64,000 bases of DNA from Nitrosopumilus sp. Its GTDB lineage: Archaea > Thermoproteota > Nitrososphaeria > Nitrososphaerales > Nitrosopumilaceae. The notes beneath the pieces are model-generated. The model searched no databases and was not told the DNA's origin. It worked only from the letters and a program-made list of their open reading frames with translations. The stretch covers positions 192,001 to 256,000 of the forward strand of contig CBDBCE010000004.1 of assembly GCA_965203315.1 (NCBI GenBank), written 5' to 3'. Position 1 is the stretch's first letter, and the number at the start of each line of letters is the position of its first letter. Made by a program: the position numbers and the translations under genes. Of the stretch, positions 19,060 to 47,328 are shown piece by piece.

Positions 19060-19344
19060 GTGTGAGCTGGAGCACGAAACGCTGCTACGGCAGAGGAAAC
19101 TCCTCCCTCCATACAGACGATGTGATTTGGAGATAAATAATCAGAGATGGTTGGCTACGGAGCAGAGAGTGATTCGTTATGGCGTACGATGATGACAAAA
19201 TCTGAGGTTTCCAGAAACGAAATGAGAGATGCCGTCCCACATGGAGTAAGGCCAAACAGAACCACACTAGTGTCTGTACTAGGTTCAGGTAGGCTGCATA
19301 GCGAAATATCGTGAAAACAAAAGGAGGGTTACTCCCAGCACACA
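19060..19344 (+). ncRNA. rnpB: RNase P RNA
   Basis: P4 elements GAGGAAACTCCTCCCT and AACAAAAGGAGGGTTA; P1 pairing GTGAGCTGG/CCCAGCAC; GAAAC and GGAGTAAGGCC motifs; GC-richer than flanks; ends approximate. Confidence 0.9.
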
Positions 19345-44603: not shown

Positions 44604-44739
44604 TCTAGATTTGTGTCATTGTGATAATATTAGACAGTTTCTATATTGTTGAATGATCGTGTTTTAGACTCTGTATGGTGCGTAAAGTGTTCATGAATAT
44701 GTCGACTAGGTTGATCTAGTAAACAGTCACTTGTATTGT

Positions 44740-44806
44740 AGACTATATGCGTATTTCTTACATCATACTCACGTTTAAGGTATAATAAAACACAAGTGTA
44801 ATTTCT
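44740..44806 (+). repeat. Truncated 141-bp-family MITE
   Basis: AGACTATATGCGTATT...GTGTAATTTCT, then breaks at the IS66 left end. Confidence 0.75.
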
Positions 44807-45009
44807 GTAAGCGGTTAGCCTGACAACGATCTTGTGGGGTTCTTTTAACTTAATGGGGGGTTAAGATTAAGTTGTAGGTATTTCGAGAAACGCACGGTAT
44901 GCAACTTAAAACAGCAATAATCTACAATGGGTGATCTAACCATTTTTCATGACTTGTAAAATTTTGAGAGAATGTTGCGTGAAAACTATCGACCCCCCCG
45001 TTAAGTTAA

Positions 45010-46348
45010 CCATATGTGAAGAAGTCGATCAGAGTACATTCAGATGATACAAAGCATGCAGGTCGATCCAAGCGATCATCTGTAAAGCGATCTAAAAGAG
45101 GAAATGCAAACAAACAGATTACCCATCCAAAAAGTAAAAACAAGATGATCTATATCGGAATAGATGCACATAAGAGATTTCTGCAAATTGCAGCAATGGA
45201 TCAGGATGGCAAGCGTCTACTCAATGAGCGTGTTGCCACAGATCATGACAGTCTAAAAAAATTCTTTGCGCAGTTTACACCACTCAATACACGTTGTGTG
45301 ATGGAGTCATCGTCAGTATGGTATTGGTTGTATAGATACTTGACAGATGAATTGGGATTTGGTGTAGTGTTATCGAATCCATATCAAACAAAGGCTATTG
45401 CAGAATCAAAGAAAAAGACAGACAAGGTGGATGCATGGACACTGGCAGATCTTTTAAGAGGAAATTATATCTCGCCTTGTTTTGTTCCTAGTGAATACAT
45501 TGTTAAATTGAAACAGTTGGTTCGACATAGAGATATAATTGTAAAAGGAAGAACGCGATACAAGAATCTTATACATGGGATATTACTGCAATATGGAATT
45601 AAAATACCTGGTTCAAGTTTTAGCAAGTCATTTAGAGAGGAATTGAAGAAACTCGAGGATTATAGAATAGATAACTATTTGGACATGATAAACCTCTCTG
45701 ACGAAAAGATTCGACAGTTGGATATTAAAATGCATAAAGAAGTAAAGAGATCACATGATGCGCAGTTGTTAAAGACAATTCCGGGAGTTGGAAACTTTGT
45801 TGCACTTGTTGTAATATCCAGCATTGGAGATGTCAAGAGATTCCCAAATGTACGCAAAATGTGTTCGTATGCAGGAATAGTGCCGTCTGTTCGCAATTCA
45901 GCTGGTAAACAAAATCACGGACGTATAACGAGGAAAGGTGATAAAATACTTAGATGGGCATTGACCGAAGCAGTTCATGTACACATAAAATGTGAACCCC
46001 ATAGCTACATTACAAAATTTTATACTAGAATTAAAAAGAGACGCGTGACAAGCAAGGCAACTGTTGCAACTGCCTCCAAGCTACTCCGATTGATGTACCA
46101 TATGCTTATAGATAGGGATGATTATGTCACACATTGTAGTCGAAATCATTAACGTACGGGTTCTGTTTGAGATATCACTCGGCAAGTTAAATGTACAGAT
46201 TTTGACGAATGGACGAAGAATGATACTGAGTTAACCACTCGAATGGATATATGTTCGCAGTCCTTTACATGGGAACACATCCCTAGCGTAAGCTATACAC
46301 AATAGTCGTGAATCAGAGTAAATCTTTATAAGCTATTCACATGGATAA
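45010..46348 (+). mobile_element. IS110-family (IS1111-like) element
   Basis: TAA core on both sides (45007-45009, 46346-46348); sub-terminal IR CCATATGTGAA / TTCACATGG; ~190-bp 3' non-coding region. Confidence 0.88.
45145..46152 (+). CDS. IS110-family DEDD recombinase
   Basis: YIGIDAH, VMES, KTDKVDA, TIPGVG, YAGIVPSVRNSAG, GRITRKG; ATG 45145 preferred over 45016. Confidence 0.95.
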   Translation: MIYIGIDAHKRFLQIAAMDQDGKRLLNERVATDHDSLKKFFAQFTPLNTRCVMESSSVWYWLYRYLTDELGFGVVLSNPYQTKAIAESKKKTDKVDAWTLADLLRGNYISPCFVPSEYIVKLKQLVRHRDIIVKGRTRYKNLIHGILLQYGIKIPGSSFSKSFREELKKLEDYRIDNYLDMINLSDEKIRQLDIKMHKEVKRSHDAQLLKTIPGVGNFVALVVISSIGDVKRFPNVRKMCSYAGIVPSVRNSAGKQNHGRITRKGDKILRWALTEAVHVHIKCEPHSYITKFYTRIKKRRVTSKATVATASKLLRLMYHMLIDRDDYVTHCSRNH

Positions 46349-46356
46349 AAGAACCC

Positions 46357-46623
46357 AACGAAGCTTGTCGTAAATTCGGAGTTCATTTAGCTAATGCTGC
46401 AGATGATCTATACACGTTTGTGCTATACTATGGTATGGAATACACAAACAACAGAGCAGAGCGCGCTATACGACCAATGGTACTATTCCGCAAGGTAACT
46501 CAACGTATCGTATCTGAGGAGAGTAAAAGACGAGTTGGCAATATCTTTACATGTGTAACAACATGGGAGCAACAAGGTCTCAACGTCTATGATACACTCC
46601 TAAAAGTTGTGCATGAGACCTAA
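46357..46623 (+). pseudogene. IS66 transposase C-terminal fragment
   Basis: LYTFV...TNNRAERAIRPMVLFRKV...TWEQQGLN. Confidence 0.8.
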
Positions 46624-46807
46624 CCTCATACAAAAAATCCATCCAACGTAAATCGAAAAGATCCGTATGAAACGCAGGAAAAAGCGATCTTTAGTACGTA
46701 ACATGTATAACACAAAGGGTGTAGAAGGGTCTAGAACACCTTCTACTAAGTTGTTAAGTACAACTTGTCGCCAATAGATACTAATAGATGTAGTTATATT
46801 AATTTTT

Positions 46808-46894
46808 GGGCATGTGCCAGAGCACGGTTAAATGGGACTTGTCGCCAACAAGTTGTTAAGTACTTCGTGGGTTCGAATCCCACCATGCCCACCA
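46808..46894 (+). tRNA. Atypical class II tRNA: Leu-like body, anticodon loop TC-GCC-AA, encoded CCA
   Basis: Acceptor GGGCATG/CATGCCC-A-CCA, D-loop with GG, anticodon stem ACTTG/CAAGT, 13-nt variable region, T-arm GTGGG-TTCGAAT-CCCAC. Confidence 0.8.
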
Positions 46895-46923
46895 AATATT
46901 CTGATTCACGTTCAGACGTCTCA

Positions 46924-47062
46924 AGACTGTATGCGTATTTCTTACATCATACTCACGTTTTAAGGTACAATAAAACACAAGCGTAATTTCTAGAGTCAAA
47001 TTGATTCATTGCTGTCATCTTTGATGTTGGTGTGGGCATTCTTAATAATATGCATACAGTCT
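46924..47062 (+). repeat. 141-bp-family MITE
   Basis: AGACTGTATGCGTATT...AATATGCATACAGTCT. Confidence 0.85.
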
Positions 47063-47171: not shown

Positions 47172-47328
47172 TATCCATTATCCATTATCCATTATCCATT
47201 ATCCATTATCCATTATCCATTATCCATTATCCATTATCCATTATCCATTATCCATTATCCATTATCCATTATCCATTATCCATTATCCATTATCCATTAT
47301 CCATTATCCATTATCCATTATCCATTAT
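47172..47328. repeat. (TATCCAT)22 heptanucleotide tandem repeat
   Basis: Perfect 7-mer array ending 33 bp before the RM start codon. Confidence 0.95.

Follow-up and report, generated by a model that had tools for sequence, protein, structure and literature searches.

A leucine-like tRNA gene with a glycine anticodon and a co-varying upstream companion suggest a paired recognition module in a Nitrosopumilus genome

What is a gene with the body of a leucine tRNA and the anticodon of a glycine tRNA for, in an archaeon that already has canonical tRNAs for both amino acids? The question is raised by a locus within a 64,000-nucleotide stretch of the Nitrosopumilus sp. assembly GCA_965203315.1 (contig CBDBCE010000004.1, positions 192,001 to 256,000; G000:C5:192001-256000 in our notation, G000 being the source genome). 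We call this stretch the window and count its positions from its first letter. The gene, referred to here as the tRNA-like gene, had been picked out in an earlier note made from the sequence alone. That note did not have two further features described here, a companion element immediately upstream and a family of paralogous units elsewhere in the genome, and these change what needs explaining. The companion carries same-strand copies of sequence from the anticodon arm and the variable loop of its own tRNA-like gene, and it co-varies with both from unit to unit. This suggests that the tRNA-like gene and its mirrored companion form a paired recognition module, and are not an ordinary or a decaying tRNA. 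The companion would thereby follow two key parts of a tRNA, the anticodon loop and the loop read by archaeal leucyl-tRNA synthetase (LeuRS). In a limited literature search we found no account of such an arrangement, in which a tRNA-like gene has beside it, on the same strand and in swapped order, a copy of its anticodon arm and variable loop that co-varies with it.

The tRNA-like gene and its companion element

The tRNA-like gene is the only tRNA that ARAGORN called in the window (Gly, anticodon GCC at position 37). It scored 48.1 bits against the Rfam tRNA model RF00005, for which the gathering score is 29 and the real Leu tRNAs of the genome score 41.8–49.4. Its four stems pair cleanly, as the earlier note had read them: acceptor, D, anticodon and T stems of 7, 3, 5 and 5 bp give 20 of 20 Watson–Crick pairs at −23.7 kcal/mol, the D stem being only 3 bp. 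The unconstrained minimum free energy structure of the 87-nt gene is a different fold (−29.4 kcal/mol, z = −1.83) and 5 of 200 shuffled sequences were equally stable, so thermodynamics alone is not what marks the gene as a tRNA. The remaining particulars of that reading also hold. The anticodon loop is U32-C33-G34-C35-C36-A37-A38 (C33 at 46843, GCC at 46844-46846), the variable region is 13 nt long, and the discriminator, at position 84 of the gene, is the A73 of tRNA-Leu, followed by an encoded CCA. Encoded CCA is common in this genome: of the 45 further calls listed for ARAGORN, at least 8 end in it. C33 departs from the U33 of a canonical elongator tRNA, and body and anticodon disagree in isotype, a Leu-like body bearing a GCC anticodon for which a canonical Gly(GCC) exists.

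The Leu-like character of the body was confirmed in three features: A73, a Leu-type T arm, and shared variable-region motifs. The 3′ part, TTCGTGGGTTCGAATCCCACC, is one base off the T-arm region of the four clear Leu genes of the genome, and the variable region, UGUUAAGUACUUC, shares AAG and UUC with their real Leu variable arms (V-arms), UCUCU(A/C/U)AGGAGUUC. The identity elements given for H. volcanii LeuRS in the excerpt of PMC9976931 used here are A73, A47c G47d and U47h, and the A73 and variable-region AAG/UUC of the tRNA-like gene correspond to that set. At most two pairs are possible within the variable region, and imposing them is unfavourable (−17.5 vs −23.7 kcal/mol). The closest real tRNA is Leu(UAG), mainly through the 3′ part, and the closest sequence overall is another odd tRNA-like (62/87). 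A recently mutated copy of a normal tRNA-Leu, the origin that the earlier note had named as fatal to its own proposal, is rejected by a best Leu match of only 62/88 positions. The gene is derived from a tRNA-Leu and is not a recent mutated copy of one.

We considered whether the gene could instead be part of something other than a contiguous tRNA. A split or permuted tRNA, or a bulge-helix-bulge substrate, was rejected, as folds of the whole unit on both strands had no common structure and possible helices between blocks came in pseudoknot order.

The companion is a repeat element of 95–155 nt, found in G000 in seven copies by nhmmer and in ten by a covariance model, R1, built from nine companion sequences; no Rfam family matches it. 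The ten copies are dispersed and have sharp right ends. In the window copy the left ~40–75 nt have been swapped for other repeats, and other copies reach ~75 nt further left. No terminal inverted repeat or target-site duplication was seen in the companion alignments, by inspection and without a formal test. Its core across the family is hairpin 1, a stem of 6–7 bp capped by a loop, L1, with a tail, L2, behind it, both of 7 nt; in the window the stem is AAGTTG/CAACTT, L1 is TTAAGTA and L2 is TCGCCAA. Each of these recurs in the tRNA-like gene of the unit, the companion stem sequence as the anticodon stem, L2 as the anticodon loop and L1 as the core of the variable region. The two blocks that carry the identity, X and Y (Table 1), sit 33-60 nt upstream of the tRNA-like gene on the same strand, in an order reversed relative to their copies inside it. 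By our arithmetic, the joint chance of exact 12-nt and 14-nt copies is ~1e-8.

Three readings of the companion itself were set aside. C/D boxes, as in a C/D-box guide RNA, were not seen by eye on either strand; the reading frame of a small open reading frame (ORF) differs between companion types, also by eye; and an nhmmer match at C1:156604-156690 (E = 0.21) looks spurious as a further copy.

Six of the ten companions abut a tRNA-like gene at their right end and four do not. The swapped-order match recurs within units, as 12 + 14 nt in the window, an 11-nt block plus 12/16 in unit 192, blocks of 11 and 10 nt in unit 1671b, and an 11-nt block plus 9/10 in unit C1:1217768. It is eroded in the decayed units, with block Y at 9/12 in 610 and no match in 243c. 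At the 43 other Rfam tRNA loci there was no same-strand upstream match of at least 10 nt. When tRNAs were locally aligned to flanks of 300 nt, the four odd G000 tRNAs scored 11–14, and none of 19 canonical class II tRNAs, drawn from G000 and five relatives, exceeded 9.0. A genome-wide scan for swapped-order repeats was swamped by tandem repeats. Exact blocks of at least 8 nt occurred in the four cognate pairs and additionally between the window tRNA-like gene and companions 382 (14 + 8 nt) and 610 (8 nt), which are of the same type A as the window companion and have no intact tRNA-like gene of their own; every other non-cognate combination of companion and tRNA-like gene shared at most one 7-mer.

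Overall identity between units is 75-77%, and L1 and L2 are among their most divergent parts, with the differences mirrored in both copies. About 5 of 8 positions of the L2 stretch differ between the window and 192, and two between 1671b and C1:1217855, each change being present in companion and gene alike. Unit 1671b has identical L1 and L2 in its two copies but a compensatory pair (G-C vs A-T) that distinguishes the companion hairpin from the anticodon stem; thus, gene conversion of the whole block is not the explanation. Compensatory acceptor-stem changes between 192 and the window likewise maintain the tRNA fold, and with such changes among the paralogues the earlier argument that intact stems speak against simple decay is upheld. 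Loops that vary between units, agree within a unit and leave the hairpins paired are what would be expected of base-pairing determinants, or of the overlaps of paired recombination sites.

Genomic setting and distribution

G000 comprises 2.47 Mb in 7 contigs, with 39% G+C. The host is an ammonia-oxidising archaeon, as indicated by an archaeal RNase P RNA in the window (19062-19343, 167 bits) and by the archaeal signal recognition particle (SRP) RNA and archaeal amoA carried elsewhere in G000. The tRNA-like gene lies in mobile, defence-rich DNA, in keeping with the accessory island described earlier. HEPN or PIN toxins, which had also been placed nearby, were not found: no such Pfam match was obtained among the 27 distinct ORFs scanned between 28 and 64 kb of the window.

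Table 1. Features of the window and of related loci. Positions are those of the window unless a contig is given; a full stop in the strand column marks a feature given without strand.
Feature	Position	Strand	Basis or remark
ABC permease genes	up to 44603		Followed by a miniature inverted-repeat transposable element (MITE) and a 172-bp repeat
IS110-family insertion sequence (IS), transposase ORF 45016-46152	45007..46348	+	Pfam DEDD_Tnp_IS110 and Transposase_20; ends from 9 genomic copies; not part of the unit
276-bp repeat, 3′ end of IS66-like element	46356..46631	+	~12 copies, 95-97% identity; IS66 C-terminal Pfam match
Unit	46686-46921		Type A; tRNA-like gene intact, best-preserved member
Companion repeat element, type A copy (hairpin 0, hairpin 1, AT-rich spacer)	46686..46807	.	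nhmmer, covariance model R1, alignments
Hairpin 0 (8 bp): GTAGAAGG, 10-nt loop, CCTTCTAC	46721..46746	.	Conserved, or rebuilt with pairing kept, in type A and B copies
Block X (AAGTTGTTAAGTAC), 5′ strand and loop L1 of hairpin 1	46748..46761	+	Exact 14-nt same-strand match to tRNA-like positions 43-56
Block Y (ACTTGTCGCCAA), 3′ strand of hairpin 1 and tail L2	46763..46774	+	Exact 12-nt same-strand match to tRNA-like positions 30-41
AT-rich spacer with conserved ATACTAATA and TTATATTAATTTTT motifs	46775..46807	.	Alignment; promoter-like on both strands but low-scoring
tRNA-like gene: Leu-type body, loop TCGCCAA (GCC, C33), A73, encoded CCA	46808..46894	+	ARAGORN, Rfam, manual cloverleaf
Block Y copy: 5′ anticodon stem and anticodon loop	46837..46848	+	
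Block X copy: 3′ anticodon stem and most of variable region	46850..46863	+	
Tail AATATTCTGATTCACGTTCAGACGTCT after the gene	46895..46921	+	82% over 57 nt (with 3′ part of tRNA-like gene) to the unit at G000:C1:1671730-1671786
MITE with ends AGACTGTATGCGTATT, between unit and downstream gene	46923..47030	.	Dozens of blast copies; contigs of other runs break at 46924 and 47026
(ATCCATT)n microsatellite	47172-47328		Second at G000:C1:243863-243984
Type ISP restriction-modification gene, 1553 aa	47361..52022	+	Pfam
Small unassigned ORFs, two DDE transposases	beyond the Type ISP gene		
Housekeeping genes (aIF5A, diphthamide synthase, SRP54)	from ~61 kb		
Unit 610	C1:610838-610980		Type A; 3′ half of tRNA-like gene decayed
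Unit 192	C1:192640-192726		Type B; loop CAGTCAA, A73, one T-stem pair broken
Unit 1671b	C1:1671758-1671844		Type C; loop TCGTCAA, Rfam 31.9 bits
Unit 243c	C1:~243470-243660		Type C; tRNA-like gene decayed
Unit C1:1217768 (tRNA-like gene C1:1217855)	C1:1217768-~1217950		Type C; loop CTGTCAA, T stem lost
Companions without tRNA-like gene	C1:382733, C1:1672040, C1:1658512, C1:243137		
V-arm GAA tRNAs of relatives	L044/L045 (G009:C1:557943, 594936); L069 (G014:C1:1564313)		
V-arm GAU tRNA of a relative	L047 (G006:C4:1430471)		

Elsewhere in the genome the units keep similar company. Two of them lie at G000:C1:~243 kb beside a truncated Type ISP paralogue that has the same microsatellite, with the unit in the opposite orientation to the gene, and further units have an MmeI-like enzyme and a PLD-SNF2 helicase as neighbours. 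The two proteins of 225 aa that adjoin units 610 and 1671 proved not to be homologous. In the four companions without a tRNA-like gene, similarity ends within ~20 nt of the expected start of that gene. Two of the ten companions lie 350-450 nt downstream of an IS110 copy and the other eight have no IS110 within ~1.5 kb; the IS110 copies insert at unrelated flanking sequences.

The surrounding repeats have features of their own. The MITE family of ~100-140 bp with ends AGACTGTATGCGTATT also occurs at 44739-44806 and at dozens of sites in the genome. The (ATCCATT)n tract lies just upstream of both Type ISP paralogues and could be a phase-variation tract. The nine IS110-family copies fall into two subfamilies (100% and ~92% identical). 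The 100% one sits at the end of the 172-bp repeat, with left flank ...CCCCCCGTTAAGT; in the other, the flanks are mostly ...GACC (left) and TATC(T/A)TAC (right). More diverged members of the family are present at C1:1708146, C1:1544395 and C1:678850.

A search for homologues, suggested by the earlier note, succeeded within the genome, where there are paralogues with compensatory stem changes, and failed in relatives, where nothing beyond a generic T arm was found (blast in 40 relatives); a phage blast likewise matched the T arm only. Model R1 gave one AT-rich match in 150 genomes of the genus (E = 8e-4), which is probably due to chance and lacks an adjacent tRNA-like gene. Pattern scans of GTDB species representatives, IMG/VR and JGI metagenomes did not find the family, and a 20-nt match in a Neobacillus record, with no tRNA there, was discounted as chance. 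Contigs of four DNA runs yielded only paralogue-like copies and repeat breakpoints.

The gene is not needed to complete the tRNA set. G000 has Gly(GCC), Gly(CCC) and Gly(UCC), the canonical Gly(GCC) being at G000:C5:74451-74526, and there are four clear Leu isoacceptors (CAA, UAG, GAG and CAG). A candidate intron-bearing Leu(UAA) with two introns, a loop CTTAAGA and a Leu V-arm and T arm was read by eye at G000:C1(-) near 1039077; ARAGORN does not call it, and the Rfam tRNA model picks up its acceptor and T arm only. With these already present, the window gene is supernumerary. The idea that it is itself a missing Leu(UAA) with an intron, prompted by the lack of one in the ARAGORN and Rfam lists and by TTAAG in its variable region, was rejected, as the candidate lies elsewhere and 87 nt leave no room for an intron. 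A copy of the 3′ end of the candidate, GTTCGCGGGTTCAAATCCCGCCCC, lies ~180 bp off, like an attachment (att) repeat (locus G000:C1(-) ~1038895-1039200, L041:4048-4172), with amoA 2 kb away. An intron-bearing tRNA at G000:C1:939799-939903 has an att-like 21-nt direct repeat of its own 3′ end less than 150 nt downstream. At G000:C1:170835-170909 a tRNA-like sequence with an 8-nt anticodon loop (ATTCGTAG), CCA and 33 Rfam bits adjoins a MITE.

C33 had been presented as a departure from a near-universal U33; within the genus it proved less anomalous than that. The loop of tRNA-Val(GAC) reads C31-U32-C33-G34-A35-C36-A37, with C33 in 24/24 loci from 23 genus genomes (G000:C1:1352350-1352424, loci L075-L098); the loop is UCGACAC or UCGACAU, with compensatory changes in the anticodon stem. 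A conserved elongator tRNA of the genus lacks U33, and C33 is therefore not disqualifying for the tRNA-like gene.

Relatives also carry V-arm tRNAs with unexpected anticodons (Table 1). These are 89-94 nt long, with a Leu-type T arm, G73 and normal U33, and are extra to the normal Phe and Ile genes. One in G009 lies 760 nt from an integrase gene and near PriX, and the one in G006 lies among TraG- and ParB-like genes; a 10-nt upstream match at a G009 gene is at chance level and was not counted. G000 itself has a second 'Phe(GAA)' of 86-88 nt at C1:1424343-1424428 (L039:4001-4086; 60.7 Rfam bits, 16-nt V-arm, G73), upstream of a methyltransferase and a DUF4011/AAA_11 helicase gene; this locus was not found in 100 genus genomes. 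It shows a looser swapped relation of 12- and 8-nt blocks, in which an upstream closing stem holds copies of the V-arm and the 3′ anticodon stem. Two related Asp(GUC)-type tRNAs (C1:718538-718610 and C1:1406350-1406421) each have an inverted copy of their own 5′ half, from D arm to anticodon loop, ~35 nt downstream, which co-varies with the gene (TTGTCAA vs CTGTCAA); MITEs are adjacent.

Explanations for the mirrored loops

Same-sense copies cannot pair with each other on one strand, so any pairing requires the opposite strand of the companion. Our tentative proposal, held with less than even confidence, is that this opposite strand pairs with the two loops of its own tRNA-like gene product. 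In its simplest form it would be a short antisense RNA whose start lies near L2; alternatively, the single-stranded DNA itself would do the pairing. The antisense tail would pair with the anticodon loop and the antisense hairpin loop with the variable loop, masking the anticodon and the LeuRS-type variable-loop signals. Each unit would in that case form a self-contained pair of RNAs, specific to each other, by which the tRNA-like gene is regulated or silenced, and would ride on mobile, defence-rich DNA. The structure of the companion hints weakly at such a minus-strand product: in 5 of the 10 copies an A.C mismatch of hairpin 1 on the plus strand is a G.U pair on the minus strand, and RNAalifold gave −5.0 for the minus and −1.3 for the plus strand. 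Predicted antisense duplexes were −19.9 to −23.9 kcal/mol for cognate and −7.8 to −18.6 kcal/mol for non-cognate combinations, a difference that follows from the sequence identities and is no independent evidence.

Several observations weigh against this proposal. Same-strand identity is also expected of recombination sites with matched overlaps. The A.C/G.U pattern may stem from one or two events, copy 243 shows the converse, and the RNAalifold support is marginal. With a promoter weight matrix derived from 35 canonical tRNA genes, the element scored 3.1-4.3 bits on both strands, against a canonical median of 7.8; these low scores singled out neither strand, and the matrix was abandoned as a means of strand assignment. 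The match is retained in unit C1:1217855 despite its decayed T arm, which could mean recent duplication and not selection, and for three of the four companions without a tRNA-like gene no convincing target was found elsewhere in G000. The co-variation rests on four or five related units of one genome, and the family is so far confined to the lineage of this organism, which limits the number of independent co-variation events.

That the blocks are DNA recombination sites strikes us as rather unlikely. The anticodon stem-loop and the companion hairpin would be two sites with a tyrosine-recombinase-type core, 7-bp inverted arms around a 7-bp overlap (L1/L2), and the units would serve for attachment or cassette exchange, by which defence genes are shuffled. 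The geometry of arm, 7 nt and arm can be read directly; partners in such recombination must share the overlap, which would explain loops that are mirrored within and variable between units, and the stem sequences are relatively conserved between companion types. Crossover sites in anticodon loops are known. The positions of the units, beside Type ISP (twice), MmeI-like, SNF2/PLD and DUF4011-helicase genes, the opposite orientation of unit to gene at the Type ISP paralogues, and the odd V-arm tRNAs of relatives, beside integrase and PriX or TraG and ParB, fit as well. So does the finding, in the portion of PMC6563490 available to us, that tRNA genes are the main targets of thaumarchaeal integrated elements, which use short att sites there. 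Other findings speak against such a system. Tyrosine-recombinase (PF00589) matches in G000 number only two (C1:1468056 and C1:412469), both far from the units, and there is no reverse transcriptase in the genome. Within the window there is no distal direct repeat of the tRNA-like gene bounding the island (none of at least 13 nt; other matches, of 10-12 nt, are at chance level). Integration does not yield swapped-order nested direct repeats 74 and 102 bp apart, the predicted deletion products occur in 0/10 copies, companions without a tRNA-like gene retain an intact spacer, and the insertion sites of IS110 copies are unrelated in sequence. A wholly inert origin, in which a tRNA-Leu-derived pseudogene and a MITE-like repeat were co-duplicated as passengers of mobile DNA, the internal copies dating from an old local rearrangement and recent duplications keeping the identity, also appears unlikely to us. 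IS110, IS66-like, MITE and DDE-transposase sequences are pieced together in the region, decay is visible in several units, the family is known from a single genome, and the match survives in the unit with the broken T arm, all as expected of a relic. Yet four units of no more than 75-77% identity each mirror an L1 and L2 of their own sequence, and as blocks of 12-14 nt are, in our estimation, too short for ordinary gene conversion, such mirroring needs selection or dedicated copying. The compensatory stem changes also count against a relic, as does the way in which a decayed tRNA-like gene (610, 243c) goes with a decayed match.

Two further explanations were weighed. If the gene were, as the earlier note had suggested, an active mis-decoding class II tRNA, charged with Leu by LeuRS through A73 and the variable loop and reading GGC/GGU, it would be akin in kind to nev-tRNAs and allo-tRNAs, and the companion would be incidental or regulatory; we judge this improbable as the explanation of the locus, and it is compatible with the pairing model. 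The other roles put forward in that note, a non-ribosomal aminoacyl donor and a decoy for anticodon nucleases, would be speculative for this gene. The intact cloverleaf, conserved tRNA core nucleotides, A73 and encoded CCA speak for it, as do the variable-region AAG and UUC, which fit both the G000 Leu V-arms and the H. volcanii set in the cited excerpt (PMC9976931). C33 is tolerated in the genus, as the U32-C33-G34 of tRNA-Val(GAC) in all 24 loci attests, other V-arm tRNAs of the genus bear anticodons of neither Leu nor Ser (GAA in G000, twice in G009 and in G014; GAU in G006), and nematode nev-tRNA-Gly and -Ile offer a precedent in the part of PMC3333845 consulted. Such a tRNA fits less well with a variable stem of at most two pairs, a position 33 that varies in the family (C, A, C, U, the A being that of sister 192), and a family of six that includes two decayed genes and one without a T stem. 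The gene is also strain-specific, in a genome where canonical Gly(GCC) is present, and mis-decoding leaves the mirrored upstream copies unexplained. There is, finally, a slim chance that the companion is a plus-strand small RNA of which the tRNA-like gene is the 3′ processing signal, an RNase P cut at the 5′ end of the tRNA-like gene freeing a mimic of its loops, a reading for which MALAT1/mascRNA or archaeal t-elements would be models. The right boundary of the companion, within ~20 nt of the tRNA-like start in four copies that lack the gene, fits a boundary defined by RNA; there is a T-run at the end of the element, and no decodable anticodon context is shared in the family. For mimicry, however, there must be a third partner able to pair with L1 and L2, and for the 12-14-nt blocks none was found in G000; the A.C mismatches of five copies fall in hairpin 1 of the plus strand, and plus-strand promoter scores are low.

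Should the coupling be base pairing, it would open to simple tests the control of a potentially mis-decoding tRNA, whether by the cell or by a mobile element; should it be recombination, the units would be a tRNA-shaped site system shuffling restriction and defence genes. The pairing proposal has a bolder extension, which we consider very improbable: an RNA-only addiction or immunity module in which a Leu-accepting tRNA with a Gly or Asp anticodon would, when free, be the poison of translation, and the cognate antisense RNA, by covering its anticodon and variable loops, the antidote. Mirrored hypervariable loops would then keep paralogous addiction modules orthogonal, and companions without a tRNA-like gene would be spare antidotes. 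Such modules would stabilise the defence islands that host them, with toxin-antitoxin logic built from a tRNA. We know of no described toxin-antitoxin system of that construction. Whichever explanation holds, a single odd tRNA has become a family with internal controls, and the genus as a whole has yielded C33 in tRNA-Val(GAC) and GAA/GAU V-arm tRNAs beside integrase or conjugation genes.

Comparison with known systems

Paired short matches between separate elements are familiar from T-box leaders and from the EBS1/EBS2-IBS1/IBS2 contacts (exon-binding and intron-binding sites) of group II introns, where two ~7-nt pairings are made in the same 5′-3′ order on guide and target. This is the topology that would be required if the opposite strand of the companion pairs with the tRNA-like gene product. 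Unlike those systems, the unit has no riboswitch platform, ribozyme or reverse transcriptase, and its partner is encoded on the opposite strand beside its target.

The bridge RNA or seekRNA of IS110/IS1111 elements, and stand-alone sRNA modules such as Ssr9 of ISPpu9, are alike in having a conserved scaffold, short variable segments that match nearby DNA, and copies without a transposase, and IS110 is abundant in G000. By the rule given in the excerpt of PMC11187229 consulted, the seekRNA segments for one target match its top and its bottom strand, from which the companion departs in that both its blocks are same-sense. The companion was also rejected as the bridge RNA of the neighbouring IS110 element, which ends at 46348 and is separated from it by the unrelated 276-bp repeat, its flanks being unrelated too. 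The att sites of tRNA genes with crossover in the anticodon loop resemble the unit in a symmetric stem around a 7-nt loop and in mobile or defence context, and thaumarchaeal elements favour tRNA genes in the text of PMC6563490 seen here. The unit differs in having no adjacent integrase and no distal att repeat, and in its swapped-order repeats, which lie 45-100 bp from the gene within a conserved element of ten copies.

Nematodes and soil bacteria are known to have class II tRNAs with 'wrong' anticodons. The bacterial allo-tRNAs, with Ser identity and diverse anticodons, are alike in their long variable region and in an anticodon unrelated to identity. As defined in the consulted part of a review, they have a 12-bp acceptor domain in an 8/4 or 9/3 acceptor/T arrangement; the tRNA-like gene has the normal 7/5 and an A73 that is Leu-type and not Ser-type, and so falls outside that definition. 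The nev-tRNAs of nematodes, with Gly or Ile anticodons, come closer, being supernumerary and having a class II Leu-like body with a foreign anticodon, on which A73 and the variable arm could direct LeuRS (PMC3333845, in the portion cited above). The tRNA-like gene, known from sequence alone, is set apart from them by its archaeal host, its restriction to one strain, its place in mobile DNA, a nearly absent variable stem, a position 33 other than U and a co-varying companion. On this comparison its closest likeness appears to be to class II tRNAs whose anticodon is non-cognate, with a coupled recognition element as the added feature.

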